In this document: piece after piece, positions 23,872-60,502 of the stretch
Numbering within the stretch: position 1 is the first letter of the stretch
How the letters are laid out: every line of letters starts with the position of its first letter
NCBI GenBank assembly: GCA_038063895.1
Contig: JBBTUG010000006.1
Location: 6,701-70,700 of the forward strand
Length of the DNA: 64,000 nt
Source: Patescibacteria group bacterium
Lineage (GTDB): Bacteria > Patescibacteriota > WWE3 > JAMCXX01 > JBBTUG01
Reading direction: 5' to 3'
Translations under genes and position numbers: made by a program
Notes under the pieces: model-generated
What the model was told of the DNA's origin: nothing
What the model saw: the letters and a program-made list of their open reading frames with translations, nothing else
The model's database searches: none

Positions 23872-25283
23872 TGACCCTCCAGGAACTGAAGGATAAAAAA
23901 ATTGCGATTCTCGGATGCTCGATTGAGGGCCTATCCTCAGCTAGGTTTCTTTTAACTCACGGAATCAGTTTTACGGTTTTGGATAAACAGTGTTTGTCTG
24001 AATTAGGAGAAGAAGCCTTACAGTTATCTGGTAACCAATTAATTAATTGGGAACTTGGCGAAAATCATTTAGACCGCCTCGAAGATTTTGAGGTTATCTT
24101 CCGCACTCCCGGTTTTCCTTTGTGGAATCAACGTTTGCAGGCGGCCCTTGCCGCCGGGGCCGAGGTTACTTCCCAGACTAAATTATTCTTTAGTCTCTGT
24201 CCGTGTCCGGTGATCGGAGTTACCGGAACTAAAGGGAAAGGAACAACAGCCACCCTCATTTCTCTGATGCTTAAAAAATCCGGCCGAGATGTTTACCTGG
24301 GCGGGAATATCGGGACTCCTCCGCTTGATTTTCTAGATAAGTTAAATCCCAGTTCCTTTGCGGTTTTAGAATTAAGTTCGTTTCAGCTCGAGGATCTTAA
24401 GGTCAGTCCAAAAATCGCCGTAGTTTTATTGATCACGGCGGATCACCTAGTCTCGCAGTCTTCGGAAAGTCCCAACTATCACAAGACGGTAAAGGAGTAT
24501 GTCACGGCCAAAAAGAAACTGGTTCAGTTTCAAACAATTTCGGATACGGCGGTTATTAGCGCAGATTGGGAAACCAGTTTAGCGATGGAAAAGGAAACAG
24601 CGGCGGAGGCGTATTTTTTCAGCCGACAGCGCGAGGTTAAGCGGGGAACCTTCGTCCAGGATAAAACGATTATTTTTGTTGAACAAGGCAGGAAGGAAGA
24701 TATTATCTCTGTTTCGGAGTTGCTTCTGCGCGGAGAGCACAACTGGGAGAACGTTTGCGCGGCCGTGACCGTCGCAAAATTGTGCAAGGTGGAAAATACG
24801 GCAATTAGCTCGGTGCTTCGGACTTTTAGAGGTTTAGCGAACCGCCTGGAGTTTGTTGCTAGTGCGGGTGGAGTTAATTATTACAATGACTCTTTTTCCA
24901 CGACTCCGGAAACGGCCGTTGCCGCCCTGCGCGCATTTTCTGAGCCGCTGATTATTATTCTCGGCGGATCGGAAAAAGGGTCTGATTATACAGAGCTTGG
25001 CCGGGAACTTCACGAGGCGAAAAACTTAAAAGCCGTTATTCTGATCGGAAATACGGCCGGTAAAATTGAGTCAGCGGTGGTCCGCGCGGGAGGTTTCCCT
25101 CCGAAAATTGAAGTTATAAAAAATCTGCCGGATATGCCGTCAATTGTTTCCGCGGCAGCGAAAATTTCAGCACCCGGAGATGTTGTTCTTCTCTCGCCCG
25201 CCTGCGCCTCTTTCGATATGTTTAAAAATTATAAGGAACGCGGAAATCAATTTACACTGGGGGCTAAAAAAATATGCGCCTAG
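23871..25283 (+). CDS. murD: UDP-N-acetylmuramoylalanine--D-glutamate ligase
   Basis: 'IAILGCSIEGLSSARFL' and a 'GVTGTKGKGTTATLI' P-loop. Confidence 0.85.
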   Translation: MTLQELKDKKIAILGCSIEGLSSARFLLTHGISFTVLDKQCLSELGEEALQLSGNQLINWELGENHLDRLEDFEVIFRTPGFPLWNQRLQAALAAGAEVTSQTKLFFSLCPCPVIGVTGTKGKGTTATLISLMLKKSGRDVYLGGNIGTPPLDFLDKLNPSSFAVLELSSFQLEDLKVSPKIAVVLLITADHLVSQSSESPNYHKTVKEYVTAKKKLVQFQTISDTAVISADWETSLAMEKETAAEAYFFSRQREVKRGTFVQDKTIIFVEQGRKEDIISVSELLLRGEHNWENVCAAVTVAKLCKVENTAISSVLRTFRGLANRLEFVASAGGVNYYNDSFSTTPETAVAALRAFSEPLIIILGGSEKGSDYTELGRELHEAKNLKAVILIGNTAGKIESAVVRAGGFPPKIEVIKNLPDMPSIVSAAAKISAPGDVVLLSPACASFDMFKNYKERGNQFTLGAKKICA

Positions 25284-26827
25284 ATAAACTTCTTGCCGAC
25301 TTCGGAATTACCGAAACAGATGGCGGACCGGAAATTATCGGGATTACTGACGACTCCCGAAAAGTAAAACCAGGATATTTGTTCGTAGCAGTAAAAGGGT
25401 TGGAGCATGATGGGCACAAATACATCGAACAGGCAATTATGGCGGGAGCGTGTGCGGTTGTGTTCGATGTAAAGTCAAAAGTTTCCGCCCAAGGCGGATC
25501 CGCCGAGGGAGGAAAAAGTCAAAAGTCAAAATTTTCAGGCACTATTTTCGTGGGTGTGAGAGGTTCAAGAAAGGCCCTAGGGCTTCTTTGGGCGGCGTGG
25601 TACGGGTATCCGGCCAAATCGTTAAGAGTCATCGGTGTGACCGGGACGGACGGAAAAACAACGACAGCTAACCTTATCTACCACCTGTTGAAATCGGCCG
25701 GAAAAAAAGTTGGCCTAATCTCGACGATCAACGCTCAAATCGGGAACGATAGTTTTGAGACCGGTTTCCACGTGACCAACCCGGAGCCGGAGTTGCTCCA
25801 AAAGTTTTTAAGATTAATGGTTGATCGGGGCACGGAGTTTGCGGTTTTGGAAGTAACCTCGCACGGAATTGATCAGGAACGGATTGCCGGAATCGGTTTT
25901 GAGATTGCCGTGGTTACGAACGTGGCGCGGGAGCATCTCGATTACCACAAAACGTATGAAAATTATCTAAATACAAAAGGGCGTCTACTCGCTTCCGACA
26001 AGGTAAGTATTCTCAATCGGGACGACAGCTCCTTCTCTTATTTAAAGAGTGTTTCCGGAGGCGAGGTGCTCAGCTACGGCATTCACCAAAAAGCTGATTT
26101 TCAAGCCACCAAGGTTACGCTACTTGGGGAATCCGCCGTATTTACCTTGGAGCCCGGTTCCGTTGAAGTAAAAATTAATCTGCCCGGAGAATACAATATC
26201 GCTAACGCTCTTGCGGCGGCGGCCGCGGCCTTCACTGTTGGGCTGAGTGGGAAGCAAGTCGCTGCAGGGCTTCAAAGTTTCCAGACGCTTCCGGGGAGGT
26301 TTGAGGAGATAAAGACCGGACGGGATTTCCGGGTCGTGGTGGATTTCGCGCATACGCCCAACGCGCTTGAGAGTGTCCTGTCTATTAGCCGTAAAATCCT
26401 GATCATACCCACACCCTTAGGGTCAAGGCTTCCCGACCCTAAGGACGAGAAACCGCAAGAGCCAAAATTAATTGTAGTTTTCGGGTGCGCGGGGGAACGG
26501 GACAGTGGGAAGCGGCCGCTGATGGGTGAGATTGCAGGCCGGTTGGCGGATATCTCGATCCTGACCGCGGAGGATCCCCGGCGCGAGGATGTTAACGGAA
26601 TTATTGAGCAAATTGCTGCGGGATGCCAAAAATCGGGTGAGCATATATTTATTAAAGAACCTGACCGGCGGAAGGCGATCGAATTGGCAATAAATATGGC
26701 CAAGGCCGGCGACTTAATTATTATCACCGGCAAGGGGCACGAGAAATCAATGTGCTTCGGGACAACAGAGTATCCGTGGAGTGATCAGGAAGTAGCAAAG
26801 GGTATTTTAGAAAGGAATAACAAATAA
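25274..26827 (+). CDS. murE: UDP-N-acetylmuramoyl-L-alanyl-D-glutamate--2,6-diaminopimelate (or L-Lys) ligase; carries in-frame repeat insertions
   Basis: 'VIGVTGTDGKTTTANLI' P-loop and 'VTNVAREHLDYH'. An 'EDPRRED' motif retains the Arg typical of DAP-type enzymes. Confidence 0.85.
   Translation: MRLDKLLADFGITETDGGPEIIGITDDSRKVKPGYLFVAVKGLEHDGHKYIEQAIMAGACAVVFDVKSKVSAQGGSAEGGKSQKSKFSGTIFVGVRGSRKALGLLWAAWYGYPAKSLRVIGVTGTDGKTTTANLIYHLLKSAGKKVGLISTINAQIGNDSFETGFHVTNPEPELLQKFLRLMVDRGTEFAVLEVTSHGIDQERIAGIGFEIAVVTNVAREHLDYHKTYENYLNTKGRLLASDKVSILNRDDSSFSYLKSVSGGEVLSYGIHQKADFQATKVTLLGESAVFTLEPGSVEVKINLPGEYNIANALAAAAAAFTVGLSGKQVAAGLQSFQTLPGRFEEIKTGRDFRVVVDFAHTPNALESVLSISRKILIIPTPLGSRLPDPKDEKPQEPKLIVVFGCAGERDSGKRPLMGEIAGRLADISILTAEDPRREDVNGIIEQIAAGCQKSGEHIFIKEPDRRKAIELAINMAKAGDLIIITGKGHEKSMCFGTTEYPWSDQEVAKGILERNNK
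26412..26447 (+). repeat. 36-bp palindromic element, copy A (in-frame inside murE)
   Basis: Arms 'ccttagggtc'/'gaccctaagg' with loop 'aaggcttccc'. It encodes PTPLGSRLPDPK. Confidence 0.8.
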
Positions 26828-29680: not shown

Positions 29681-30835
29681 ATGAAAGAAATGGAAAACGA
29701 AAAGAAAAACATCGGAGTAATATTTGGCGGAATGAGCGCCGAATGCGAGGTATCTTTAGCAACGGGGAGATACGTTTACTCGCTGCTAAATAATAAAAAA
29801 TTTACCGGAACGCCATTTTATTTGGATAAAAAAGGCACTCTTTGGCAGGTTCCAGACAAACTGGTAATCCAAAATACGACGACGGATATCGAGCAGCGCC
29901 TGGAGAAGGACGCGAGCCGGGTAAATTTCGAGGACCTTCCCGGGAAAGTCAGCTGTGTTTTTAATGCGCTGTTGGGCAAGTACGGCGAGGATGGCTGTTT
30001 TCAGGCGATCTTGGAATTGTTGAAAATTCCTTACACCGGTTCAGGAATTCTCGCTTCCGCGTTGGGGATGGATAAAAAAGTCCACAAGAAAATGCTCTCC
30101 GGGGCGGGGTTTTTAGTGGCCAAAGATCTATTAATTCGTAATTCGGAATTCGATATTCGGAAAGTTACGGAAAAAGTTTCCAGGGAAATCGGTTTCCCCT
30201 GCGTTGTGAAGCCGACCCGGGAAGGTTCAAGTATGGGAGTGTCGGTGGTTAAAGAAGAAAAGGGTTTGGAAACAGCGTTCGAGTACGCCTTTAAGTATGA
30301 TCAGGAGGTTCTTGTCGAAGAGTATCTGAAAGGGATGGAGTTTACCTGCGTGGTTTGGGGCAACGACGATCCGAAAGCTATGCTCCCTACCGAAGTCGTG
30401 TTCGAGGGCGATTTTTTTACGTATGAAGGTAAATACATGCCGGGAAAAACCCAGACGATTACGCCCGCCCGGCTTTCGGAAGAGGGCTTGGCCGAGATAC
30501 AGCGCCAATCCGTGGCGATTTATCAGCTGATTGGTTGCCAGGGCTATGGCCGGGTTGACGGCTTTGTCGTTCCTAAGACCCTAAAGGTCGGGGAGCCCAG
30601 ACCTTTAGGGTCTTTGAGTTTGTCTGATATCTCAATTTACATCGCTGAGCCGCACACGGGAACAATTATGGTTCCTTCGTCTTTCGTTTTTCAACAGGCG
30701 GCGAAGTTCCGGATTGATCTGTCCACAGAATTCCATGGAAAAAAAGGTTCGATTCCGATGACCCCGCGCATTTTGGTAACAAAAATTATTGAGTTAGCCT
30801 TCGAAGCGTTTAGCAATAAGAAAGGATTATTATGA
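29681..30835 (+). CDS. ddl: D-alanine--D-alanine ligase (paralog 1; Lys-Tyr retained at the K215/Y216-equivalent position)
   Basis: ATP-grasp motifs 'FPCVVKPTREGSSMGVS' and 'FFTYEGKYMPG' (K at 30431-33, Y at 30434-36). The C-terminus is extended by a repeat insertion. Confidence 0.8.
   Translation: MKEMENEKKNIGVIFGGMSAECEVSLATGRYVYSLLNNKKFTGTPFYLDKKGTLWQVPDKLVIQNTTTDIEQRLEKDASRVNFEDLPGKVSCVFNALLGKYGEDGCFQAILELLKIPYTGSGILASALGMDKKVHKKMLSGAGFLVAKDLLIRNSEFDIRKVTEKVSREIGFPCVVKPTREGSSMGVSVVKEEKGLETAFEYAFKYDQEVLVEEYLKGMEFTCVVWGNDDPKAMLPTEVVFEGDFFTYEGKYMPGKTQTITPARLSEEGLAEIQRQSVAIYQLIGCQGYGRVDGFVVPKTLKVGEPRPLGSLSLSDISIYIAEPHTGTIMVPSSFVFQQAAKFRIDLSTEFHGKKGSIPMTPRILVTKIIELAFEAFSNKKGLL
30577..30612 (+). 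repeat. 36-bp palindromic element, copy B (in-frame inside ddl paralog 1)
   Basis: Perfect 13-bp arms 'gaccctaaaggtc'/'gacctttagggtc' with loop 'ggggagccca'. It encodes KTLKVGEPRPLG. Confidence 0.85.
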
Positions 30836-31884
30836 GCGGCATATTAAGAATTGGTTTATTTATCGGCGGGCTGTCTTCGGAAAAGGAAATCTCTTTGGAA
30901 TCAGGGCGTCACGTCTACAACAGTCTTGACCGGGAAAAGTATGAAGTTCTTCCGATCTTTGTCGATAATGAAGCCCATCTTTGGGAGATTGAGGAGGGGT
31001 TGCTGTGGAAAAATACCACCACAGATCTTAAAGATGCCCTCGGTAGCGGGGGAAGCCGGGTTTACTACGAAGATTTAAGAAATAAGATTGATTTTGCTTT
31101 TATTTGCCTCCACGGAAAATACGGCGAGGACGCCTTCCCGGGACTTTTTGAGATACTGGGAATTCCCAACAACGGCGCCTCCGTTTTGGGAGGAGCATTG
31201 TCAATGGACAAATACCGCCAAAGGATGGTTTTGCAGGCGGCTGGGATCGATACTCCAAAGTATTTTCCAATCGAAAATTCCAAGTTCCAAATTCCAAATT
31301 CCAAAATATTTGATGAAGTAGAAGCTGTGTTAAGTTACCCGGTAATGGTGAAGCCGTCGCGGGAGGGAAGTTCAACCGCACTGCATAAGGTGAATAACCG
31401 GGGAGAACTTGAAGCCGCACTTTCCGATGCCTTTATTTACGATAAAGTCGCCTTGGTCGAGGAAGTTTTGGTCGGAACGGAGTTAACGACATTGGTTTAT
31501 GGCGAAGGCGAAAATATTAAAGCCCTGCCGCCATCGGAACTTCTCCGGGGAGGGGATTTCCTTACCGCCCAGGAAAAATTTCTGCCGGGTGGGGCGCAGA
31601 TGATAACCCCGCCGCGGCTACCTGTGGAAGTAGTTGAGGAGGTAAAGAGAGCAGCGGTGAATACGTTTCAGGCGTTAAGTCTTAAGGTCTATAGCCGGAT
31701 CGATTCATTTTACGTTCCGGGTCGGGGAGTGGTAATTTTGGAGCCGAATAACCCGCCGGCGATGACGCCCTCGACGGCTTTGTGGCTTGAGGCTGCCGAA
31801 GAAAACCTTAACGCTTCCCAATTGTTAGATGATCTGATCCGTATCTCCCTTGTCCTCCACGCCGCCAAACTCGGCCCACTTTAA
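30832..31884 (+). CDS. D-alanine--D-X ligase (Ddl paralog 2; Phe replaces Tyr at the Y216-equivalent position)
   Basis: 'YPVMVKPSREGSSTA' and 'FLTAQEKFLPG' (F codon at 31579-31581). About 350 aa. Confidence 0.75.
   Translation: MSGILRIGLFIGGLSSEKEISLESGRHVYNSLDREKYEVLPIFVDNEAHLWEIEEGLLWKNTTTDLKDALGSGGSRVYYEDLRNKIDFAFICLHGKYGEDAFPGLFEILGIPNNGASVLGGALSMDKYRQRMVLQAAGIDTPKYFPIENSKFQIPNSKIFDEVEAVLSYPVMVKPSREGSSTALHKVNNRGELEAALSDAFIYDKVALVEEVLVGTELTTLVYGEGENIKALPPSELLRGGDFLTAQEKFLPGGAQMITPPRLPVEVVEEVKRAAVNTFQALSLKVYSRIDSFYVPGRGVVILEPNNPPAMTPSTALWLEAAEENLNASQLLDDLIRISLVLHAAKLGPL
31278..31306 (+). repeat. Heptanucleotide tandem repeat (ttccaag/ttccaaa x4) inside the ddl paralog 2 coding sequence
   Basis: Seen directly. 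It encodes 'KFQIPNSKIF'. The unit length is not a multiple of 3. Confidence 0.7.
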
Positions 31885-33913: not shown

Positions 33914-35383
33914 TTATCTATAAATATCAGGGAGGTCGTTTTCGAAGAGGATCAGAGAGTTGGGTTTGACTAATTGCGGGATTATCTCTTTGGTTGCCTG
34001 ATCGAGGGAGTCAGTGATGAATAATCTCTGACCTATTGTTCCGTTGTTCCATTGTTTCATTGCTGTGGCGTTGCTCCAGCCGCCTTCTCTAATTCCTTGC
34101 AGAAGGGCTGCACGGTTGGTTTTGTTGACGATCACGGCGTAATCAAAATTTTCGGCAATCAGTTCTCCTAACTTTTTATTCTCTTCGAACTGCTGTTTTC
34201 CCAATTCCACTATTCCCGGAGTCACTATTATTTTTGGGTAGTTGGGTAAACGGGTAATCAGTTTTATTGCGGCCCGGGCGCCCTCCGGGTTGCTGCTGTA
34301 GGCGTCATCAATTATTAACGAGTTTTCGGGGCCGTGGATTAGTTGTAAGCGGTGTTCCGGTGGGCTGACCTTGAATAGGCCGTGCCTTATTTCCTCTTCA
34401 GTTAAGCCTAAATATGTTCCTACAGCAATAGCCGCCAGGGCATTGCTGACGTTGTGGTCTGCCGGGAGGTTGAGGGTGTAAGTGTCTTGTTTTACCCTGA
34501 ACTCGGAGGATTCGGGAGAGGATGAAATAATTTCCGCCTGAAGATCGGCTTCAACTCCGTGCGGTTTGCTAATCCGGGAGTAACCTACTTTATTTATTAT
34601 AGTTTTTAGATAGAGTTCTACGCATGGTTGGGAGTACAGATTGAAAACCGCCAAGCCCTCCTCCGGAAGGGATTGAATCAATTCCGATTTAGCTTCCACG
34701 ATATTTTCCAAACTCCCGAACCGCTCCAGGTGCTGATTAGTTATTCCGGTGATAATCCCGATTTTAGGTCGAACCATCCGGCAGAGTTCCGCAATCTCGC
34801 CTTTTTTGTAGGCGCCCATTTCGACGATAAAGACTTCGTGCTCCGGCTTTAATTTCATATTGATGATACCGGCTATGCCGAAAAGCGTATTGTAGCTTTT
34901 TGGAGTCGCCAAAACTTCGTACTTCGTTGCGAGAACAGTTGCTAGGATTTCCTTCACCGTGGTTTTGCCGTAACTGCCGGTAATTCCGATGACCAATAGG
35001 TTTTTGTGTTCCGTGATAATTTTTTGGGCACGGAGAACCGTCCGGCGGCGGTTGATGATTTCGTATGGCCGGAGAACTAGTAAAGATATTAGAAGTAACG
35101 GCTGGGGGAACAGCTGAAGAAGAATAACGATAATTACACCCTTAAGGTCAAGGCTCCCCGACCTTAAGGGTGTGGCCCAGGGCTGAAATAGAAATATGGG
35201 AGCTAGGCTGAGGGCAGTGGCGCATATGAAAAGAAACCTGGCCTTCGAAGTCCACACCAGCGCCTTTTTCTTTTCCAGTCCTAAACGGAACAAATTTTGA
35301 ACGGTCCATTTAATGAAGCGGACTAGGTCGTATTCCAAAACCTGCAGGGCGTAAAGCTGGTTGTAAAGCGGGATGTACCTCAT
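33914..35383 (-). CDS. murF: UDP-N-acetylmuramoyl-tripeptide--D-alanyl-D-alanine ligase, with an N-terminal hydrophobic extension containing a repeat insert
   Basis: 'LLVIGITGSYGKTTVKEIL' P-loop and 'IGIITGITNQHLERFGS'. The start is set at Met 'MRYIPLYNQL' (35383) because the longer ORF overlaps the upstream hydrolase gene. The two genes overlap in an ATGA arrangement. Confidence 0.85.
   Translation of the reverse strand: MRYIPLYNQLYALQVLEYDLVRFIKWTVQNLFRLGLEKKKALVWTSKARFLFICATALSLAPIFLFQPWATPLRSGSLDLKGVIIVILLQLFPQPLLLISLLVLRPYEIINRRRTVLRAQKIITEHKNLLVIGITGSYGKTTVKEILATVLATKYEVLATPKSYNTLFGIAGIINMKLKPEHEVFIVEMGAYKKGEIAELCRMVRPKIGIITGITNQHLERFGSLENIVEAKSELIQSLPEEGLAVFNLYSQPCVELYLKTIINKVGYSRISKPHGVEADLQAEIISSSPESSEFRVKQDTYTLNLPADHNVSNALAAIAVGTYLGLTEEEIRHGLFKVSPPEHRLQLIHGPENSLIIDDAYSSNPEGARAAIKLITRLPNYPKIIVTPGIVELGKQQFEENKKLGELIAENFDYAVIVNKTNRAALLQGIREGGWSNATAMKQWNNGTIGQRLFITDSLDQATKEIIPQLVKPNSLILFENDLPDIYR
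35137..35172 (+). repeat. 36-bp palindromic element, copy C (in-frame inside the murF N-terminal region)
   Basis: Perfect arms 'cacccttaaggtc'/'gaccttaagggtg' with loop 'aaggctcccc'. It encodes PLRSGSLDLKGV in murF. Confidence 0.85.
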
Positions 35384-36105
35384 AAAATAAATTCCGAGAT
35401 TAATTTTGCGACCAGAGCCGGTTGTTCTATAAACGGGAAATGGCCGCACTGCGGGATAATTTTTAAGACCGAGTTTTTTATTCCCCTTTTCATAATCGCC
35501 GCGTCGCGGATGGGAGTTTCGGGATCTTCCTCGCCCCAAATAAGTAACGTTGGAGCCGCAATATTGCTCAACTTAGTCCGAAGGTCCTCTTCCACAATTA
35601 TAGCCATTGTCGCCTTCATCGGACCGGCGGCGCGGTAATCTTCCGATTGGAAGGATTTTGCCAGAGGTTTTTTAATAAATTCGGGAGAATTCGAAAAAGC
35701 TTTCGACATTAGAAGTTTCGTTTGGGTGAGGATGTCGCGGCGGCGGATTCCCGCGCTGTCAATCAAAATCATTTTCTTTACTCCGTTATATTCCAGCGCG
35801 TAGGCGAGTGCAATTTTCCCGCCAACCGAGTGTCCCAATAAAATGGGTGATTCGATTTCCAGTTCCTTAAAAAATTGATTTAATAAGGCGGCGTAATCGC
35901 GGCTGGAAAAAGGGGTTGCCGGAACCGAGCTTTCTCCGAAACCGGGCAGGTCCAAAAAGATCATTTGGAAAGGGAGCGCCGCGAGGTAAGGTTTTAAACT
36001 TTCCCAAATCTGCAGATTAGCTCCCCACCCGTGCAAAAAAACAATTTGTTCTCCGCGCCCGTAAACCTCGAAGTTGATATTCAGTCCCTTGATTGAGATG
36101 TTCAT
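35380..36105 (-). CDS. Alpha/beta-hydrolase fold protein
   Basis: 'VFLHGWGANLQIWE' and the nucleophile elbow 'GHSVGG'. 241 aa. Confidence 0.7.
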   Translation of the reverse strand: MNISIKGLNINFEVYGRGEQIVFLHGWGANLQIWESLKPYLAALPFQMIFLDLPGFGESSVPATPFSSRDYAALLNQFFKELEIESPILLGHSVGGKIALAYALEYNGVKKMILIDSAGIRRRDILTQTKLLMSKAFSNSPEFIKKPLAKSFQSEDYRAAGPMKATMAIIVEEDLRTKLSNIAAPTLLIWGEEDPETPIRDAAIMKRGIKNSVLKIIPQCGHFPFIEQPALVAKLISEFIL

Positions 36106-36119
36106 GAGTCGTCGCCGCT

Positions 36120-36155
36120 CACCTTAAAGATCATGGCTCTTCGACCTTTAAGGTG
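36120..36155 (+). repeat. 36-bp palindromic element, copy D (intergenic, in the 5' UTR of the hydrolase-murF operon)
   Basis: Arms 'caccttaaagatc'/'gacctttaaggtg' with one mismatch, and loop 'atggctcttc'. Confidence 0.8.
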
Positions 36156-36314
36156 TACGTATCTATTCTACCGTTTCCGCCGCCCTTCTGTCACAACGGT
36201 ACGTTTAGGGGAAGAGGTATAAACACGTCGAGGAATCACGTGACGCAATAAGTTAAAAATAAACTCTACAAATTTAACCGCTGATCGGCTGAATATTTTG
36301 TAGAGTCGATGCTC

Positions 36315-45072: not shown

Positions 45073-47952
45073 ATGAGCAAAATTGAAGCCGTTCCCGATT
45101 TTCCCCTGAATGAAAGAGAAACTCTTGCGGGTTGGAAAAAAGACGGAGTGGAAAAGAAATATTTAGCCAGAAATGAGTCTTCCCCGAAGCGGTTCCGGTT
45201 TATCGATGGCCCAATTACGGCTAATAACCCGATGGGGGTTCACCACGCCTGGGGCCGGACCTACAAAGATTTTTTCCAGCGTTATAAAAATATGCAGGGC
45301 TTTGCCCAGAGGTTCCAGAACGGTTTTGACTGCCAAGGTCTTTGGCTCGAGGTTGAAGAGGAAAAGAGCCGGGGCTTTAATTCGAAGAAAGACATTGAAA
45401 ATTTCGGCTTGGCTAACTTCAGCCATGCCTGCCGGGCCCGGGTCGAGAAATATTCCGCCATTCAAACTGAACAATCGCAGCGGCTGGGGATGTTTATGGA
45501 TTGGGGAAATTCGTATTATACGATGTCCGAGACGAACAACCTTTATATCTGGCACTTTTTAAAAAAATGCAATGAAAAAGGCTGGTTGTATAAAGGCGTG
45601 AACTCGATGCCCTGGTGCGTCCGCTGCGGCACGGCGATTTCCGCTCACGAACTCTCCGACGAAGGTTATAAAATAGTGGAACACGAATCAGTTTACGTGA
45701 AGTTTCCGTTAGTTTCGGACGATTCCAAATCCACGGCAACAAGTCTTCTAATTTGGACAACGACGCCTTGGACGCTTCTCGCCAATGTGGCCGTGGCCGT
45801 GAATCCCGATTATTCCTACGTTAAAATCAGAACGGAAAGCCGGCCGGAAGAGTTATTAATCGTAGCCGAAAACCGTCTTTCCGTAATCCCGGACGGCTAC
45901 CAGGTGCTTGAAAAAATCGCGGGGAAAGACCTGGTTGGGAAGACTTACCGTGGGCCTTTTGATGAACTAGGGGCGCAAAAAGAAGTGCAGCACCGGGTAA
46001 TTGACTGGCCGGAAGTTTCGGAAACGGAGGGAACGGGACTGGTGCACATCGCTCCCGGCGCCGGCGAGGAGGACTTTATATTAGGGAAAAAATTTAAACT
46101 CCCGGTTTTGGCGCCGCTTGATGAGTTTGGGATTTACTTGCCCGGTTACGGCGAATTTACCGGTAAGGATGCCCGCCGGATTAATGCCGAAGTGTTTGCT
46201 TCTCTGGAAGCGAAAAAATTCCTTTTTAAAACCGAAAAAATAAAACACAGTTATCCGCATTGCTGGCGGTGTAAGGAGCCGTTGGTTTTCCGGGTGACGG
46301 AGGAGTGGTTTATTAAGGTTGACCCGATTCGTCCTCTGCTAAAGCAGCTAACTGAAAAGATTGACTGGCGGCCGGATTACGTCGGGAAAAGGATGCAGGA
46401 TTGGTTGTTGAATATGAACGACTGGCCGATCTCCCGCCGGCGATATTGGGGGCTGGCGCTGCCGTTTTATGAATGTCCGAATAATCACTTAACTGTCGTC
46501 GGTTCGAAAGAAGAACTAAGACAGTTGGCGGTGGAGCCGGAAAAGGTTGACCACTTGCCGGAACTGCACCGGCCGTGGATTGATGAGATAAAAATTAAAT
46601 GTCCGCAGTGCGGGACGACAGTGGCCCGGGTGAGTTACGTCGGTGACTGCTGGCTGGACGCGGGGATCGTTTCCTTTTCGACTTTAAAGTACCTCGAGGA
46701 TAAAAGTTATTGGGAGAAATGGTTTCCGGCGGAAATGGTGACGGAATACGTGGCCCAGGTGAAACTTTGGTTTTACTCCCTACTTTTTATGGCCGCGACT
46801 CTTGAAGAAAGAGCGCCTTTTGAGAAAGTTTTTACCGACGGGTATGTGGTGGATGAAAAAGGGGAAGTGATGCATAAATCGAAAGGGAATGCGATCTGGT
46901 TTGACGAGGCGGTGGAGAAGATGGGGGCGGATATTATGCGCTGGGTTTATATGCGCGCCGATAATGCTAAGGATATAAGGTTCGGTTACGGCATTGGTGA
47001 CGAGGCCCGCCGGCGTTTTTTCCTGATTTTATGGAATAGCCTGAAGTTCGTGCTGGATAACCGGGAGGTTGACGGAGTGCCGGTAGGGAAGTTATCGCAG
47101 GGGGTTGGAAAATCACTGCCGGTCCTCGACCGCTGGATTCTATCCCGCCTCAACAGCACGCTAAAGCTGGTGACAGAGGCGAATGATGATTATCACCCCC
47201 AGCCCGGGGCGTTGGCGATTGAAGGTCTGGTAAATGACTTATCCACCTGGTATATAAGGCGCAGCCGCAACCGGGTCGGACCGGCGGCGGAAAATCAGGA
47301 GGATAAAGAGTCTTTTTACCAAACCGCTAATTCCGTTTTTTCGGTTCTGGTCAGGATGCTCTCTCCGTATACGCCTTTCTGGGTCGAGCGGATTTATAAA
47401 TACTTGGGCGGGGAAAAGCTCTCGGTTCATCTTGAAGACTGGCCGGTTGTAGAGGAACTACGGATTGATGCTGAGCTTGAAAAGGAAATGGCGTTAGTCC
47501 GGCAGATTTGCGAGGCGGGTCACGCGGCGCGGAAAGCCGCTAAAATTAAAGTCCGACAGCCACTTGCTTCGCTCGATGTCAAAGTTTCCACCAAAGGTGG
47601 ATCCGCCTTGGGCGGACAAAATTCAAGATTAATAATTTCTGAAGATATAAAAAAACTTGTACTGGCGGAGCTTAACGTGAAACAGCTGAAGTTTACCGAA
47701 GAGGCGGGTCTGAAAGAGATGACGGTGGAATATGATTTGAATATCACTCCTGAACTGAAAGCTGAGGGCGAGGCGCGGGAGCTGATCCGTTCTATTCAGG
47801 AGCTGCGGAAAGAAAAAGGCTGCCGGCTGACGGACAAGATTGTGGTTTCGGCGTCGGCCTGGCCGGAGGCTTTTGAAGCCCTAATTAAGCGGGAAACTTT
47901 AACGGCAGAACTAAAACAGTCCTCCGATCCTCTTTCCATCACAGTTTTATAA
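45073..47952 (+). CDS. ileS: Isoleucine--tRNA ligase (type 2-like; atypical HIGH region 'GVHHAWG', KMSKS as 'MHKSKGN')
   Basis: 'KDFFQRYKNMQGF', 'FDCQGLWLEVE', 'DWPISRRRYWGLALPFYEC' and a zinc-binding 'CPQCG'. 959 aa. Confidence 0.75.
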   Translation: MSKIEAVPDFPLNERETLAGWKKDGVEKKYLARNESSPKRFRFIDGPITANNPMGVHHAWGRTYKDFFQRYKNMQGFAQRFQNGFDCQGLWLEVEEEKSRGFNSKKDIENFGLANFSHACRARVEKYSAIQTEQSQRLGMFMDWGNSYYTMSETNNLYIWHFLKKCNEKGWLYKGVNSMPWCVRCGTAISAHELSDEGYKIVEHESVYVKFPLVSDDSKSTATSLLIWTTTPWTLLANVAVAVNPDYSYVKIRTESRPEELLIVAENRLSVIPDGYQVLEKIAGKDLVGKTYRGPFDELGAQKEVQHRVIDWPEVSETEGTGLVHIAPGAGEEDFILGKKFKLPVLAPLDEFGIYLPGYGEFTGKDARRINAEVFASLEAKKFLFKTEKIKHSYPHCWRCKEPLVFRVTEEWFIKVDPIRPLLKQLTEKIDWRPDYVGKRMQDWLLNMNDWPISRRRYWGLALPFYECPNNHLTVVGSKEELRQLAVEPEKVDHLPELHRPWIDEIKIKCPQCGTTVARVSYVGDCWLDAGIVSFSTLKYLEDKSYWEKWFPAEMVTEYVAQVKLWFYSLLFMAATLEERAPFEKVFTDGYVVDEKGEVMHKSKGNAIWFDEAVEKMGADIMRWVYMRADNAKDIRFGYGIGDEARRRFFLILWNSLKFVLDNREVDGVPVGKLSQGVGKSLPVLDRWILSRLNSTLKLVTEANDDYHPQPGALAIEGLVNDLSTWYIRRSRNRVGPAAENQEDKESFYQTANSVFSVLVRMLSPYTPFWVERIYKYLGGEKLSVHLEDWPVVEELRIDAELEKEMALVRQICEAGHAARKAAKIKVRQPLASLDVKVSTKGGSALGGQNSRLIISEDIKKLVLAELNVKQLKFTEEAGLKEMTVEYDLNITPELKAEGEARELIRSIQELRKEKGCRLTDKIVVSASAWPEAFEALIKRETLTAELKQSSDPLSITVL

Positions 47953-51006: not shown

Positions 51007-51032
51007 TTTATCCTTAACATCCGATAAAAAAA

Positions 51033-51068
51033 CACCCTAAAGGTCGGTGGAGGTTGACCTTCAGGGTG
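51033..51068 (+). repeat. 36-bp palindromic element, copy E (intergenic, at the rpmA 3' end; terminator-like)
   Basis: Arms 'caccctaaaggtc'/'gaccttcagggtg' with one mismatch and loop 'ggtggaggtt'. It is followed by 'taaatgttttt'. Confidence 0.75.
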
Positions 51069-51080
51069 TAAATGTTTTTC

Positions 51081-52406
51081 TCAACGATCCTCTCTCGGGC
51101 AGTCATCGAACGCAGGGTTCGAGCATACCGTCATCCGCCTTCCCATCTTCATTGGTGCGTGGCAGAACGGACACTGTCCAAGTCCCGTATTAACTTTCGG
51201 CGTCTTAATTCGTTGGCTGCCGACCGGAACGTAAGGAACCCCAAGATTCCACATCCCCGGCTGTGCAACTGACTTCGGACACAGGTGGTTCGCGAAAGCA
51301 AAGTCGCAGCCAGGGCATTGCCACTCTGAGGGGCGGGCAGGAAAGCCTTCCCGTTGATATTTCTGGTAAGTCGCAATCGCCAATTTCAGGCTGACCAGCG
51401 TTTCTTTCCAGAGCCGTGAATCGAAGGGAATGGGTATCTTTTCGAGGCGCATCGGATTGAGGGTTAGTCGGTGGACCCACAACGAAACGTTCTCCGCTTT
51501 AATCCCAAGTCCGGAAAAAGCCTGCATTGCCCAGCTGGCATACAGCGCTAATTGGAGCTGACAGTCCTGATGGTCCAGCTCGGAGTGGATATCGATGCCG
51601 GTCACTTTGTGGTCGATGATCCGGACCGAATACTGGCCGTCGTGCTCAGTGAGAATAACGAGATCAACGGCTCCGTTTAATCCCCATTTTTCTCCCTCAG
51701 TCATCGTGAGGCCGGTACCGGAAAGCAGCCAGTTGAGGTCAATAACCGGGAGACGCATCTCCGCGTCCCACCAGACCAGCTTCGTACCGCTGCGGGCTAA
51801 GGCTTCTCCGTAGGCTTTGACAGACACCATCTGGTGATGATGCCAAAGGAAACGGATAACCTGCTCCAGGTAGTAACGCATCGTCGGAATTTCCCAATCG
51901 TTTTGGGTGCCTATTCTGTGCCGGAAAAACTTTTCATCCGTAAACTTTCCTAAGATGTTGCTCAACCCCCACCGCGTCCGAAAAAATCCGACTTCGCTTA
52001 GTGACTTTTGTTCGGACAGCTGACGGGCGAGGTGGTAAACGGTACCGAAAGCGTTGCCCGGAGAGCTGGGTTGGCATGGATGTTCTTTCCGCAGCTGGTA
52101 GGCAAGCGGACAACCAAATCCCAGCATCTGAACCGCGAGCGTCGGGGTCATCCGGTTTGCCGGCCGGTGTTTTAATATCACCTCGCTGGTCGGTATGCAG
52201 TTTTCGCAAAGCCGTGATTTCGGCGCTTTCTTCCGAGGCAAGCCCGGTAAACTTTTTCCGGGTAAATAAAGGCGGCCGGTTCGTAAAGAGAAATTCCCAC
52301 AGCGGGCGCAAACCGCCGGGTGGTTCCAATTCCGGGATCTGACTAAAGCCGGCTTACGCATCGCTAAATGCGGCTGCATAAGCACCAGTTGTGTCGCTAA
52401 AGTCAT
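51081..52406 (-). CDS. PD-(D/E)xK (RecB/Cas4-like) nuclease family protein with Fe-S-type cysteine cluster
   Basis: 'GAVDLVILTEHDGQYSVRIIDHKVTG' supplies nuclease motifs II and III. 'QLQLALYA' is the RecB-family QhxxY motif. The N-terminus has 'CARCG' and the C-terminus 'CPGCDFAFANHLC'. Confidence 0.5.
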   Translation of the reverse strand: MTLATQLVLMQPHLAMRKPALVRSRNWNHPAVCARCGNFSLRTGRLYLPGKSLPGLPRKKAPKSRLCENCIPTSEVILKHRPANRMTPTLAVQMLGFGCPLAYQLRKEHPCQPSSPGNAFGTVYHLARQLSEQKSLSEVGFFRTRWGLSNILGKFTDEKFFRHRIGTQNDWEIPTMRYYLEQVIRFLWHHHQMVSVKAYGEALARSGTKLVWWDAEMRLPVIDLNWLLSGTGLTMTEGEKWGLNGAVDLVILTEHDGQYSVRIIDHKVTGIDIHSELDHQDCQLQLALYASWAMQAFSGLGIKAENVSLWVHRLTLNPMRLEKIPIPFDSRLWKETLVSLKLAIATYQKYQREGFPARPSEWQCPGCDFAFANHLCPKSVAQPGMWNLGVPYVPVGSQRIKTPKVNTGLGQCPFCHAPMKMGRRMTVCSNPAFDDCPREDR

Positions 52407-53097: not shown

Positions 53098-53117
53098 CTT
53101 AAGAATAAATGGTGTCA

Positions 53118-53140
53118 ATGAAACAATGAAACGATGAAAC
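53118..53140 (+). repeat. Tandem 'ATGAAAC' octamer-spaced repeat (x3) forming overlapping mini-ORFs (MKQ, MKR, MKP...)
   Basis: 'atgaaacaatgaaacgatgaaacc'. Each TGA stop overlaps the next ATG (ATGA). Confidence 0.6.
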
Positions 53141-53224
53141 CATTCTCCCCTGTAGAATTATAATTCCCCTTCCGTATTAACTCAACCCGAAAATCGGCGG
53201 ATTTTGCTATAATTTTGAAGAATA

Positions 53225-54514
53225 ATGAACCTTCGCGTTAAAAAAGTGGCCGGGAATACGTTGTTCCAATTAGCTGGAAAGGCGGTTTCAATCACCTGTT
53301 CGCTGCTGGCGACGGCGTTAATTACCCGCCGGTTTGGTGAGAATGGCTACGGCCTGTTTGCCCTAATGACGACTTTCGCCGCCTATTTCTACCTGGTGGT
53401 GGATTTCGGCATTAATGCCATCGTGATCCGGGCGGTGACGGAAAATAAGGAAAAGATCGCCGATTACTTCCGCAACCTCTACACTTTCCGTTTTTTGTTC
53501 TCTTTAGTTATCTTTTTAGTTGTTCTTTGCCTTCTGCCCCGGATTAATTTTAAAACCTCCGAACTCAGTCTTGTCCGGTGGGGGATTGCGATCAGTTTAT
53601 TTACGGTTATTTCCCAATCCCTTTATATCTCCGCCAACGCGATCTTCCAAAAAATATCCCGCTACGATCTTTCCAACCTCGCCTTAACCGCCGGAAATAT
53701 TCTGGCCCTACTGCTGACCCTTCTCTTCCTTTTCCTAGGCAAAGATTTGCTGTGGATGGTAGGGGCGACGGTAGTGGGAGCCTTTTTGTCCGTGGCTTTT
53801 TCCTTTGCGCTGATCCGGCCTTTCGTGCACTCCCTTCGGCCGTCGTTCGAGACGAAAGTGTGGAAAGAAATATTACTGCCGTCCTTGCCGGTAGGACTGG
53901 GGCTAATCACGATGGTGATTATGGCCAAGACGGATATGTTTTTGCTCTCAACAATTACTTTGCCCTCAGCTTTGGGCTATACTAACGGCCAGGCTTTAGG
54001 CTTCTACGGTCTGGCCTACAAAGTTTTTGAGACCGCCCTGGTTTTCCCGACCTTCTTTATCAACGCCCTCTACCCGTTACTCTTGGAGGATCATTTTTCC
54101 GACCGGGAGAAACTTAAAAACACCGTGAAGAAATCGGCTCTGTTTCTCTTTCTCATCGGGCTGGTGGCAGCTATTGTAGGCATTATTTTCGCCCCCTTTG
54201 CTATTACGGTTCTGGGTGGGAGCCGTTTCTTACCCGCCGTCGCGCCGCTGCAAATTCTCCTGCTGTCGCTGCCGATCTTCTTTCCTTCGGCTCTGTTTGT
54301 CTGGCTGTTAGTTACGCTAGGGCGGGAAAAATATCTGCCCTTAATTTACGCGTTCGGATCCGTATTTAATATCGCCGGCAATCTGTATTTTATTCCCCGT
54401 TACGGTTTTCTCGCTTCCGCGTGGCTGACCGGAATTACGGAAGTAATTGTTACCGTTTTGACGGCCTATTTATCTTTAAAAATACTTTTTGCCAAGGAAG
54501 GTTCCCGTGCTTAA
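53225..54514 (+). CDS. wzx: Polysaccharide flippase (Wzx/MOP superfamily)
   Basis: 429 aa with about 12 TM segments. The N-terminus 'LRVKKVAGNTLFQLAGKAVSITCSLLATALITRRFGENGYGLFAL' is a polysaccharide_synt signature. An extended -10 'TGcTATAAT' at 53205-53213 suggests a leaderless transcript. Confidence 0.7.
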   Translation: MNLRVKKVAGNTLFQLAGKAVSITCSLLATALITRRFGENGYGLFALMTTFAAYFYLVVDFGINAIVIRAVTENKEKIADYFRNLYTFRFLFSLVIFLVVLCLLPRINFKTSELSLVRWGIAISLFTVISQSLYISANAIFQKISRYDLSNLALTAGNILALLLTLLFLFLGKDLLWMVGATVVGAFLSVAFSFALIRPFVHSLRPSFETKVWKEILLPSLPVGLGLITMVIMAKTDMFLLSTITLPSALGYTNGQALGFYGLAYKVFETALVFPTFFINALYPLLLEDHFSDREKLKNTVKKSALFLFLIGLVAAIVGIIFAPFAITVLGGSRFLPAVAPLQILLLSLPIFFPSALFVWLLVTLGREKYLPLIYAFGSVFNIAGNLYFIPRYGFLASAWLTGITEVIVTVLTAYLSLKILFAKEGSRA

Positions 54515-55427
54515 TCCCCTGATATCCATTGTTATTGCCTCAAGCCGAAAAGATAGGAATAAGCTTTCGGCGTGTTTGGATTCCATTTACAAGGGATCTT
54601 TTCCGGCTGCTTCTTTTGAAGTTATTGTTGTCGACAGCGGGGCGGGGGACGAGGCAAAAGATTATCTTTTGGAGACAGCGAAAAGTCGCCCCAACCTTGT
54701 GCCTGCCTTTCCCGGCTTTGGTAATATCGGTCCGGCGCGGGCGCGAAATATTGGGATTAAGCTGGCCAAGTCGTCCTTGGTGGCTTTCACAGATGATGAT
54801 ATTTCGGTTGATCCGCAATGGCTGGAAAAGATTACTAAGGCTTTTCTTGAGCATCCCGAAGTGGCCGCTGTTGGCGGAATGACTTTGCCCCCGGACTCCT
54901 TGAGGCGAAATCCGTTTGCCGAATACGAATCGTCTATCTACCAACGCTATCTGAAAAATGGTTGCGCGGGCAGTTACTTATCAACGACGCGGGACGAGCA
55001 CCCGGTATTTACCGGCAATATTGCTTATCGGAAGGAGGTTTTAGAAAAAGCCGGGGGTTTCAGCGAAAATTTTCCGCCTTTTGTCTATGGGGAAGATGGG
55101 GATTTAAAGGAACGGGTGCTAAAAATGGGCGGCCGGTTTTTGTACATCGACTCGGTAAATTACCACAATACGGAGTACAGTCTCGCCAGCTTTTGGCAAA
55201 AAGAGGAGAAACGGGGGGCGGGGATTTTGCGCTATCGGAAAGACCACTACGGGACGTCTAGGCTTACACCTTTAAGATCGGGGAGCCGTGACCTTAAAGG
55301 TGTTTTGCATATGGTTATGAACTTAATACACCTTAAAGGTGTAAAAAATATTATGGGTATGTTTATTCTGGGTTTGGCGGTTGTCGCCCGACAAGTGGGG
55401 AAAATTCGTTACTATGGAAAAGTCTAA
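54489..55427 (+). CDS. GT2 family glycosyltransferase (3' end altered by palindromic-element insertions)
   Basis: 'ISIVIASSRKDRNKLSACLDSI...FEVIVVDSGAGDE...AFTDDDISVDPQW'. The C-terminal roughly 50 aa are encoded by repeat copies F and G. Confidence 0.6.
   Translation: MPRKVPVLNPLISIVIASSRKDRNKLSACLDSIYKGSFPAASFEVIVVDSGAGDEAKDYLLETAKSRPNLVPAFPGFGNIGPARARNIGIKLAKSSLVAFTDDDISVDPQWLEKITKAFLEHPEVAAVGGMTLPPDSLRRNPFAEYESSIYQRYLKNGCAGSYLSTTRDEHPVFTGNIAYRKEVLEKAGGFSENFPPFVYGEDGDLKERVLKMGGRFLYIDSVNYHNTEYSLASFWQKEEKRGAGILRYRKDHYGTSRLTPLRSGSRDLKGVLHMVMNLIHLKGVKNIMGMFILGLAVVARQVGKIRYYGKV
55267..55342 (+). repeat. 36-bp palindromic element copy F (55267-55302) plus a solo arm G (55329-55341), in the 3' end of the GT2 ORF
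   Basis: Arms 'cacctttaagatc'/'gaccttaaaggtg' with loop 'ggggagccgt'. A solo 'caccttaaaggtg' follows. Together they encode TPLRSGSRDLKGV...HLKGV. Confidence 0.8.
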
Positions 55428-56538: not shown

Positions 56539-56547
56539 TTAGTGGCT

Positions 56548-56575
56548 ATGAAACAATGAAACAATGAAACCATGA
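56548..56575 (+). repeat. Tandem 'ATGAAAC' repeat (x3) forming three overlapping mini-ORFs (MKQ*, MKQ*, MKP*) whose last TGA overlaps the ATG of the downstream gene
   Basis: 'atgaaacaatgaaacaatgaaaccATGAgaatt'. ATGs at 56548, 56556, 56564 and 56572, with a TGA overlapping each next ATG. Confidence 0.6.
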
Positions 56576-60451: not shown

Positions 60452-60502
60452 TAATGGCTGTAAATTATTGACAATATATAATAAGTACGTTATAATGTAC
60501 GT

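Follow-up and report, generated by a model that had tools for sequence, protein, structure and literature searches.

The hairpin insert in murE

The window, that is, the whole 64-kb stretch of DNA that was analysed, comes from a member of the groundwater Patescibacteria, ultra-small CPR bacteria with a densely coding genome. Copies of a short hairpin repeat are found in its murE, in ddl, in a gene for a second, membrane-anchored Mur ligase (mur2) and in a GT2 glycosyltransferase gene, and two more copies lie between genes (Table 1). The murE product is 100% identical to a Patescibacteria MAG protein at NCBI. An earlier note on this DNA had reported a perfect palindrome that encodes a part of MurE, and both observations hold: the two arms are fully complementary, and in the murE frame the hairpin encodes residues 379-390 (PTPLGSRLPDPK). 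The span given there, 26412-26447, corresponds to the palindrome plus three flanking bases on either side. A second murE insert (25484-25513, amino acids 71-85), which had been set apart as a distinct element, does belong to a separate repeat family.

Table 1. Positions of murE, its extra segment and the members of the hairpin family within the window
Feature	Position	Strand	Description and evidence
murE (UDP-MurNAc-tripeptide synthetase)	25274..26827	+	517 aa; Pfam Mur_ligase, Mur_ligase_M, Mur_ligase_C
Lineage-specific murE segment	26399..26455	+	19 codons, aa 376-394, LIIPTPLGSRLPDPKDEKP; protein and DNA alignments, PDB-chain gap, AF2 coil
Copy A, full 40-nt element	26410..26449	-	covariance model (CM) match, 54.2 bits, E 2e-14
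Palindrome of Copy A	26415..26444		perfect 10-bp arms CCTTAGGGTC (26415-26424) and GACCCTAAGG (26435-26444); 10-nt loop AAGGCTTCCC (26425-26434)
Copy in ddl (ORF 29681..30835)	30575..30614	+	perfect 15-bp stem; peptide KTLKVGEPRPLGS; CM
Copy in membrane-anchored Mur-ligase gene (33914..35383, -)	35135..35174	-	perfect 14-bp stem; peptide TPLRSGSLDLKGV; CM
Intergenic copy	36118..36157	-	ends 12 nt 5' of the start codon of an alpha/beta-hydrolase gene, 35380..36105(-); CM
Intergenic copy	51031..51070	+	between the convergent rplU-rpmA operon and 51081..52406(-); CM
Copy in GT2 glycosyltransferase gene (54489..55427)	55265..55304	+	peptide TPLRSGSRDLKGV; CM
Singlet mini-palindrome in the same GT2 gene	55327..55343		ACACCTTAAAGGTGT, outer stem only; CM

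The extra segment in murE goes beyond the 12 codons originally given. It comprises 19 codons at a site where close orthologs have about two, a net gain of 51 nt in the DNA alignment with P0003 and P0002, and the close ortholog P0003 has no hairpin in this alignment. The comparison with orthologs that the earlier note had called for identifies the segment as an insertion, since none of the 24 aligned orthologs, with identities between 85% and about 47%, has it; orthologs that share the segment and lack any repeat family, which the note had named as counter-evidence, were not found among these 24. An 8-nt match between the corresponding site of P0003 and the element (AGGGTCAA) lies in a different frame and was treated as a coincidence.

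As had been supposed, the insert occupies a loop: the AlphaFold model shows coil at residues 378-398, with a pLDDT below 50 at residues 381-386, and alignment with the MurE chains in the PDB leaves a gap of 16-19 residues. The proposed placement between the central and C-terminal domains, in contrast, needs to be corrected, since in the AlphaFold model the insert lies within the C-terminal domain, following the first strand (353-357) and a helix (362-377) of this domain and preceding a strand (399-406). This position explains why the Pfam Mur_ligase_C match starts only at profile position 37. The loop is variable within the clade. A hairpin is also present in the same MurE loop of L009, which is an outgroup to the hairpin-less orthologs P0002 and P0003, and the hairpin of L009 and Copy A therefore represent either independent insertions or one ancient insertion that was lost in some lineages. 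Overall, MurE gains 17 residues within a flexible C-terminal-domain loop, a change that is probably neutral for catalysis.

By itself, the murE hairpin could be due to chance, since about 1.1 perfect stems of at least 10 bp are expected per 64 kb in dinucleotide shuffles and its 10-mer is not enriched (7 matches versus 4.0 expected). As a member of a repeat family, as which it had been described in the earlier note, Copy A cannot be a chance product: it matches positions 35140-35169 over 30 nt with three mismatches, where no such match is expected, it is recovered by the covariance model with 54 bits, and its fold z-scores on the two strands are -3.7 and -4.3. The canonical orientation is the minus strand, on which Copy A reads CTCGTCCTTAGGGTC GGGAAGCCTT GACCCTAAGGGTGTG and is predicted to fold with -24.6 kcal/mol, compared with -18.0 kcal/mol on the plus strand. 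Its outer stem has partly decayed and contains two G.T wobbles on the minus strand. The same stem variant (CCCTTAGGGTC...GACCCTAAGGG) is found in L011, where the arms have their full length. When this hairpin family is set aside, stems of 7-9 bp occur in the window at chance frequency.

A dispersed family of hairpin doublets

The family consists of dispersed hairpin repeats of 38-40 nt with the consensus TACACCCTTAAGGTC-GGGGAGCCTT-GACCTTAAGGGTGTA. Taken singly, the arms are small quasi-palindromes as well; they share an ACC(C)-TTA-(G)GGT core and contain the sequence ACC(C)TTAAGG(G)T. The element is therefore a REPIN in miniature, in which two REP-like units form an inverted doublet. A covariance model finds exactly six full copies and one singlet in the window. 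Non-overlapping contigs of the same well contribute four further copies, and a related species has two hairpins of related type. Of the ten copies from this well, seven are intragenic, as judged from long ORFs with Pfam domains or conserved downstream sequence, a proportion that refers to about 130 kb of covered genome and includes four copies found by searching for the element itself. The host genes code for MurE, Ddl, the Mur-ligase paralog, the GT2 glycosyltransferase, an aminotransferase and a membrane protein. In the GT2 gene, the conserved C-terminal motif RQVGKIRYYGK comes after the copy, which identifies the copy as an internal in-frame insert. There is no orientation bias, with three copies on each strand of the window and four sense and three antisense copies among the intragenic ones. 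The typical variant is free of stop codons in frame 1 alone, in either orientation, and all seven intragenic copies are read in a stop-free frame.

The stems are conserved as structures. Among 11 aligned copies, 96.8% of the stem cells pair and 13 cells are compensated on both sides, and the covariation score was reached in 0 of 500 shuffles. The fold z-scores of all copies range from -3.3 to -5.8, and the loop sequence is also conserved across copies. The 185,579 species-representative genomes contained no match to a pattern with a fixed outer stem and any loop or to a loop-anchored pattern, and in a metagenome scan matching contigs came solely from the same well, Hainich H41. A search of the whole window against Rfam at the gathering threshold returned tRNA-Val only, and one copy searched at a permissive threshold gave only chance matches to miRNA hairpins, far below threshold. 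Neither target-site duplications nor a shared target motif were seen at the copy junctions. A candidate relic in the clpB-polA spacer of a relative was discarded, the alignment being too diverged for a call.

The ddl and mur2 copies are orthologous to decayed relics in the relative L007. They retain their perfect stems of 14-15 bp even though four-fold sites differ at 61.5%, and perfect stems at orthologous sites in the face of saturated neutral divergence point to active maintenance of these two copies.

A RAYT-like transposase with cognate palindromes

No transposase gene was found within the window. The same MAG encodes a single HUH/Tyr (Y1) transposase of 232 amino acids, P0241, which matches Pfam Y1_Tnp with 38 bits (cut-off 23). 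In NCBIfam it matches only the family of REP-associated tyrosine transposases, with 46 bits under a cut-off of 80. Roughly 6,800 homologs were found, and no variation was seen in the HUH (NHFHLL) and Tyr (RYIHLNP) motifs of 54 homologs. The best fold match of its AF2 model (pLDDT 87.5) is 4er8 (E 1.7e-5), the E. coli TnpA-REP bound to a REP hairpin, followed by the IS608 and ISDra2 TnpA proteins. A profile search of the PDB gave weak matches (E 0.05-0.13), and the repeat-protein matches from a single-sequence PDB search were rejected as spurious.

The transposase gene shares contig L015 with a canonical family copy of 62 bits, and in MAG GCA_964357555.1 it lies on contig 34, with the window sequence on contig 1. 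The gene order LysM - Y1_Tnp - nrdG - nrdD - nrdR is found in both L015 and L019; L022 has Y1_Tnp - nrdG - nrdD - nrdR on a contig that begins just upstream of the transposase gene. On all ten contigs that carry P0241, each from a partial genome, the locus is the same. Judged from this synteny in three related, partial genomes, the transposase gene appears to be single-copy and vertically inherited.

A singlet of the family palindrome is located 10-12 nt 5' of the transposase start codon and is of the same motif type as the singlet in the GT2 gene. Upstream singlets are present at all five loci compared (TACACCTTTAAGGTGTA, TAGACCCTTAGGGTCTA, TACACCCTAAGGGTGTA, CGAACCCTAAGGGTTCG and AACCCGAAGGGTT), and three of these, L020, L021 and L022, have a 3' flanking palindrome as well. 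In three related genomes the upstream singlet carries the family stem sequence with compensated changes, and in two distant CPR genomes the homologous gene is flanked by cognate palindromes. In SRR22388139 the singlet matches the arms of the dispersed doublet of the same organism. It is this sequence identity between gene-flanking singlets and repeat arms, at five loci, that links the transposase to the hairpins.

Origin and maintenance of the repeats

Based on the palindromes beside the transposase gene, we hypothesize that the hairpin family is the cargo of the RAYT-like Y1 transposase and that the two form a miniature, mostly intragenic REPIN-RAYT-like system, a reading that we consider likely. 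The transposase would recognize the hairpin on single-stranded DNA, as proposed for REPIN-RAYT, and would disperse or maintain the doublets. In a densely coding genome most landings would fall within genes, and a copy would survive only if it is placed in the single stop-free frame of its orientation and if the affected surface loop can accommodate additional residues. Peptides such as TPLGSRLPDPK would result from this filter on frame and loop position. The relative GCA_041643115.1 requires an extra assumption, as it keeps an apparently intact Y1 ortholog (43% identity, motifs present) and its ddl and mur2 copies have decayed; for example, the specificity of the enzyme would have shifted, in line with a differing singlet, or its activity would have been lost.

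The repeats might instead be selfish palindromic elements of the RPE or MITE type that have no relation to the Y1 gene, are spread by an unseen enzyme or are immobile, and persist as tolerated inserts. Insertion in frame and in both orientations into unrelated housekeeping genes does mirror the Rickettsia palindromic elements (RPEs), the window has no transposase gene and the family has no REP GTAG/CGTC tags. However, three related genomes have the family stem, with compensated changes, as a singlet directly 5' of their Y1 gene, and in two distant CPR genomes cognate palindromes surround the homologous gene. No terminal repeats accompanied by target-site duplications were detected, and tolerated junk would be expected to lose its perfect stems at two orthologous sites over the observed four-fold divergence. 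We therefore regard such an origin as unlikely. An origin as host-functional structures, that is, terminators, mRNA stabilizers or processing or protein-binding sites under selection, with a secondary link to the transposase, seems equally improbable. The strong folding of all copies and the retention of perfect stems and of the loop GGGGAGCC in old orthologous copies despite saturated neutral divergence speak for a function, and with the T7 that follows it on the minus strand, the copy at 51031 resembles an intrinsic terminator. On the other hand, T-runs are missing behind most copies, termination within essential genes such as murE and ddl would be harmful, Rfam matches are absent, and the mixture of sense and antisense intragenic copies makes a strand-bound mRNA role unlikely. 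A host function would, moreover, be compatible with a RAYT-like origin, as co-option of this kind has been suggested for REPs.

That the inserted peptide was selected for a function of its own, such as a new interaction surface on cell-wall enzymes, with the palindrome being incidental, is very improbable. Several hosts are indeed peptidoglycan enzymes (MurE, Ddl and the Mur-ligase paralog) and similar peptides recur, e.g. TPLRSGS.DLKGV, but this recurrence follows from the single stop-free frame. Depending on strand and frame, the element encodes different peptides, it also occurs between genes and in unrelated hosts (the aminotransferase, GT2 and membrane protein genes), the insert is predicted to be disordered, and the nucleotide changes that distinguish the stems of individual copies are compensatory and alter the encoded residues. 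A palindrome that arose by chance, or locally through an event such as template switching at replication, within a variable loop of MurE and without relation to the other loci would fit the variability of this loop within the clade, the roughly one perfect 10-bp stem expected per 64 kb and the 10-mer that is not enriched when taken alone. This origin is effectively refuted by the 30-nt match at a second locus, the E-value of the covariance model, the full-length arms of the same stem variant in L011 and the loop sequence that is kept across copies.

If the RAYT-like reading is true, REPIN-RAYT-like systems are not confined to intergenic DNA and are able to remodel surface loops in essential enzymes. 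This would explain in concrete mechanistic terms how some lineage-specific insertions of CPR proteins, so far unexplained, arose. Single copies would remain perfect hairpins over very long divergence, so that maintenance and turnover could be tested against each other at orthologous sites. For annotation, a short low-confidence loop in a CPR enzyme may owe its presence to a repeat and not to a function. We also put forward, as a tentative and rather doubtful extension, that the RAYT-like enzyme of this clade and its doublets form a persistent, mainly intragenic replicator population. Jointly, this would entail that copies are kept perfect until synonymous saturation by selection or by enzyme- or repair-mediated arm-to-arm correction, that the family and at least two further small palindrome families are a main source of the lineage-specific loop insertions of CPR proteins, MurE, Ddl and IleRS among them, and that palindromes land preferentially in or beside older palindromes, creating insertion 'hot-spot' loops.

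Comparison with known systems

An assignment of the repeats to intrinsic terminators was rejected, as T-runs follow only the copy at 51031 (T7, minus strand) and, weakly, the copy at 55265, and Copy A lies in the middle of a gene without one; this was judged by eye, the scan tool allowing loops of up to 8 nt and the hairpins here having 10-nt loops. They also differ from MITEs derived from DDE transposons in that no copy is flanked by a direct repeat and the whole element is a single hairpin. IS200/IS605-family enzymes insert without target-site duplication. The IS200/IS605 elements and their hairpin-ended miniature derivatives share the enzyme fold, and the IS608 and ISDra2 TnpA proteins recognize hairpins at the element ends on single-stranded DNA. 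However, the transposase gene described here is single-copy, syntenic across species and not mobile, and the repeats are symmetric doublets rather than distinct left and right ends around a gene.

Similar to the repeats described here, RPEs are palindromic in-frame inserts in unrelated housekeeping genes of a reduced genome, encoding surface peptides that are apparently compatible with the fold. RPEs are about 100-150 bp long with reported CGTC ends (PMC3733652), whereas the present elements measure 40 nt and have no consistent CGTC tag, and a dedicated transposase is not known for RPEs; sequence similarity of the family to RPEs was not seen. GTAG or CGTC end tags define two described REP super-families, and REPs of the CGTC type apparently have no dedicated transposase (PMC3733652). 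No consistent GTAG or CGTC tag was found at either end of the aligned copies with their flanks, CGTC being present only in the decayed arm of Copy A. Intragenic GTAG/CGTC REPs of 20-40 bp that lie wholly within ORFs and are translated have been described in several species (Di Nocera et al. 2013, PMC3733652). While these form a tagged minority within families that are otherwise extragenic, the copies described here are untagged and in the majority intragenic.

The closest resemblance is to the REP/REPIN-RAYT systems, such as the E. coli REPs with TnpA-REP (PDB 4er8) and the Pseudomonas REPINs. RAYTs occur in one copy per genome, are passed on vertically and accompany palindromic repeats, and when RAYT function is missing, REPINs decay; the pairs have been discussed as rare, vertically inherited and long-lived replicators in bacterial genomes. 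Shared with them are short palindromes arranged as inverted hairpin doublets in multiple dispersed copies, the additional singlets (in the GT2 gene and beside the transposase gene), a HUH/Tyr transposase gene that is present once per genome, at a conserved chromosomal position and flanked by its cognate palindrome, and long persistence in the lineage with decayed copies in a relative. In contrast, the elements are 40 nt long rather than about 100 bp, and seven of the ten copies are intragenic and predicted to be translated, whereas REPINs are described as almost exclusively extragenic, so that an extragenic location does not characterize this family. The transposase also belongs to a divergent clade, with 232 amino acids and a score under the NCBIfam RAYT cut-off, and the host is a Patescibacteria bacterium. 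The family and its putative enzyme are probably a new REP/REPIN-RAYT-like system, miniature and mainly intragenic, of the kind already known as REP/REPIN-RAYT.

A palindrome within murE and its dispersed relatives

An earlier note had described a palindromic element within murE, and a perfect inverted repeat with 10-bp arms and a 10-nt loop, CCTTAGGGTC-AAGGCTTCCC-GACCCTAAGG, is indeed present at 26415-26444. A Patescibacteria MAG at NCBI has an annotated MurE 100% identical to the host ORF, in which residues 379-390 read PTPLGSRLPDPK. Alone, this hairpin (Copy A) is unremarkable: about 1.1 perfect stems of at least 10 bp are expected per window from dinucleotide shuffles of the window, and the 10-mer of its arm shows no enrichment. 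Its significance comes from its relatives. The 30-mer of Copy A recurs at 35140-35169 with 3 mismatches, against 0 such matches expected, and a repeat search of the window likewise reveals a family around it. A covariance model of six copies aligned in a common orientation (40 positions, 14-bp stem), searched without filters, finds six full copies and no more in the window, as well as a singlet consisting of the outer stem only (see table). Among 11 aligned copies, 96.8% of stem cells are paired, 5 of the 14 stem pairs show both-sided changes (13 cells) and the covariation score is reached by none of 500 shuffles. The loop, GGGGAGCC, is nearly invariant across the family, which matches no Rfam family. 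Copy A is a slightly decayed member whose inner 10 bp are perfect and whose outer stem is reduced to G.T wobbles on the minus strand; its stem variant occurs with full-length arms in contig L011.

No extra copies occur in ~17 kb past the window edges, and the family copies do not differ between independent assemblies of this population. Searching 185,579 species-representative genomes with two patterns gave 0 matches, and a metagenome scan recovered the element only in contigs from one and the same groundwater well, Hainich H41, where contigs not overlapping the window added four distinct copies. The analysis covered ~130 kb of the genome, and four of the ten same-population copies came from searching for the element itself.

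Hairpin-family copies and other features of the window
Feature	Position	Strand	Context
murE	25274..26827	+	517-aa ORF, all three Mur-ligase domains
Second palindrome family	25484-25513		murE, aa 71-85; encodes VSAQGGSAEGG
Second palindrome family	47587-47616		IleRS ORF 45073..47952; encodes VSTKGGSALGG
Copy A	26410	-	in murE
Family copy	30575	+	in ddl
Family copy	35135	-	in Mur-ligase paralog
Family copy	36118	-	intergenic
Family copy	51031	+	intergenic
Family copy	55265	+	in GT2 glycosyltransferase gene
Outer-stem singlet, 17 nt	55327-55343		
First Ddl paralog	29681-30835		hairpin insert
Second Ddl paralog	30832-31884		
Heptamer motif x3	53106-53143, 56536-56573		upstream of two polysaccharide-synthesis genes
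Heptamer motif x3, inverted	34035-34063		Mur-ligase paralog 3' end
GIY-YIG ORF	57824-58105	-	93 aa
Defence and toxin-antitoxin cluster	59091-60865		window 3' end

The insert in MurE

At aa 376-394 (nt 26399-26455), the window MurE carries 19 residues against ~2 in close orthologs, which lengthens the gene by a net 51 nt, and the segment is absent from all 24 aligned orthologs. Solved MurE structures leave a 16-19-residue alignment gap here, and in the AlphaFold model (mean pLDDT 85.5) the segment is a coil at 378-398, with pLDDT <50 at 381-386, following helix 362-377 and preceding strand 399-406. The earlier placement between the central and C-terminal domains does not hold in this model: since the first strand of the C-terminal domain (353-357) lies ahead of the insert, the insert is inside that domain rather than in an interdomain linker, and the Pfam Mur_ligase_C match therefore begins only at profile position 37.

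Within the clade, this loop has repeatedly been occupied. The ortholog P0002 (85% identical) carries a different palindrome there, the ortholog P0003 has no hairpin, and in the outgroup L009 a related hairpin with a perfect 17-bp stem occupies the loop in the same frame. Copy A is either a recent arrival or an older insert that its closest relatives have lost. The insert near the murE 5' end is separate from Copy A, as had been stated, and belongs to a second coding palindrome family of tandem mini-palindromes (TCCRCC-NNN-GGYGGA x2) with shared flanks GTCAAAGTT... and ...CAAAATTC. In P0002, the loop of Copy A holds a member of this second family. The apparently empty P0003 site (KVKGQNSRL) looks like the family's flanks, so an older palindrome may have stood there before Copy A, which would then have inserted into it or taken its place. 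A recurrent N-terminal insert, '...SASMIRII..E' (alignment columns 30-45), common to the non-sister MurE orthologs P0002, P0006, P0007, P0009 and P0013 and missing from the window MurE, may be another repeat-derived segment.

Copies inside genes

Seven of the ten same-population copies are intragenic, in long ORFs encoding MurE, Ddl, a Mur-ligase paralog, GT2, a class I/II aminotransferase, a 617-aa membrane protein and one further protein. In Ddl, all PDB alignments end at the element and distant orthologs have no insert there; in GT2, the conserved C-terminal motif RQVGKIRYYGK picks up again past it. Four copies are sense and three antisense to their host genes. The common variant has only one stop-free frame of three per orientation, and each of the seven copies is read in a stop-free frame. 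The recurring peptides (TPLRSGSLDLKGV, TPLGSRLPDPK) are explained by this survivorship filter and give no evidence of peptide-level selection.

The hairpin insert is present in only the first of two adjacent Ddl paralogs, and the second aligns without a break along the full Pfam Dala_Dala_lig_C profile. The same Ddl beta-hairpin loop carries a third small palindrome, CCGACTC-CGG-GAGTCGG (encoding PTPGVG), in ddl of relatives (L008:10001-11200, L009:4280-5542), and variable inserts of 15-45 aa in close relatives, which mark it as an insertion hot spot.

Elsewhere in the window, the tandem-heptamer motif (C)AATGAAAC x3 could be a regulator binding site. The GIY-YIG ORF, a small nuclease-like gene, is polymorphic in its presence: the window and the MAG contig L006 have it, and the strain contig L005, co-linear in other respects, does not. 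The terminal cluster (also L005:10144-17052) encodes AbiEi/AbiEii, Phd/YefM (with ParE in L006) and Bro-N proteins, and L005 has a Type III restriction-modification system just past the window. The glmS genes of the window, L001, L007 and L008 share 67-88% mutual identity, but that of L009 (L009:1474-3240) shares only 47-49% with them, which suggests gene replacement in the L009 lineage.

A candidate transposase

No transposase is encoded in the window. The same-well contig L015 has a canonical copy (L015:3163-3202, 62 bits) and a gene for a 232-aa protein with a Y1_Tnp domain (38 bits, cut-off 23), whose sole NCBIfam match, 'REP-associated tyrosine transposase' (RAYT), scores 46 bits, under the cut-off of 80. 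Its HUH (NHFHLL) and tyrosine (RYIHLNP) motifs are invariant in 54 homologs, and its predicted structure (pLDDT 87.5) best matches 4er8, the E. coli RAYT with bound REP hairpin (E 1.7e-5), then IS608 and ISDra2 TnpA. The gene is also found on contig 34 of MAG GCA_964357555.1, whose contig 1 holds the window's sequence. The order Y1_Tnp - nrdG - nrdD - nrdR is kept in three related genomes (transposase identity 100%, 61% and 43%), with a LysM gene ahead wherever the contig reaches that far; the transposase thus behaves as a single-copy, vertically inherited gene.

A singlet of the family stem lies 10-12 nt upstream of the start codon (TACACCTTTAAGGTGTA in the window's genome, TAGACCCTTAGGGTCTA in L019, TACACCCTAAGGGTGTA in L022). 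The L022 singlet, which matches the arms of a murE doublet from the same sample, also occurs directly past the stop codon and once within the gene. Two distant CPR genomes, WWE3 L020 and L021, each have a palindrome of their own on either side of the homologous gene; it has the family's core, ACCC-NNN-GGGT, and occurs 7 and 5 times where ~0.6 would be expected per 20 kb. Besides flanking copies, such genes also contain their cognate palindrome internally (L020:9951-10741, L021:9036-10725, L022:461-477), encoding NPKG/HPKG-type motifs.

Age and maintenance

In the related genome GCA_041643115.1, no intact copy is found at the syntenic locus (L007). Its ddl site holds an equal-length segment that shares the AAGACC...TCT ends peculiar to this copy and 11 of the 14 bases of the right arm, its Mur-ligase site keeps GGTCGGGGAG with a degraded right arm, and pairing is lost at both; the segments are orthologous relics. 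Because 61.5% of four-fold degenerate sites differ between the two genomes (Jukes-Cantor distance ~1.28), a 30-nt stem could not have stayed perfect in the window lineage under neutral evolution. An intact canonical copy in L009, as distant as L007, confirms that the family is old. Hence, relics in L007 and perfect stems in the window indicate that some lineages maintain or repeatedly renew individual copies, and that in others the copies decay.

Comparison with known systems

The best reading of these sequence comparisons is that the hairpin family and the candidate enzyme form a REPIN-RAYT-like system. The arms would be inverted REP-like units, the 40-nt doublet the dispersed unit and the Y1 enzyme the likely agent of its dispersal or maintenance, and Copy A would be a doublet inserted into a MurE loop that tolerates it. 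Our literature search turned up no earlier description of one in CPR/Patescibacteria. REPIN populations have been described as kept where a RAYT functions and decaying where it does not, which matches the pattern across lineages; however, the relative with decayed copies keeps an apparently intact enzyme ortholog, an observation that the simple model would not lead one to expect. Described REP families are defined by GTAG/CGTC tags (PMC3733652) and by extragenic location. Since the hairpin family lacks the tags and lies mostly within genes, and its candidate enzyme belongs to a divergent clade, we class it as a variant and not as a REP member. Rickettsia palindromic elements share the in-frame habit, but their size is different, and the hairpin family, unlike them, has a candidate enzyme.
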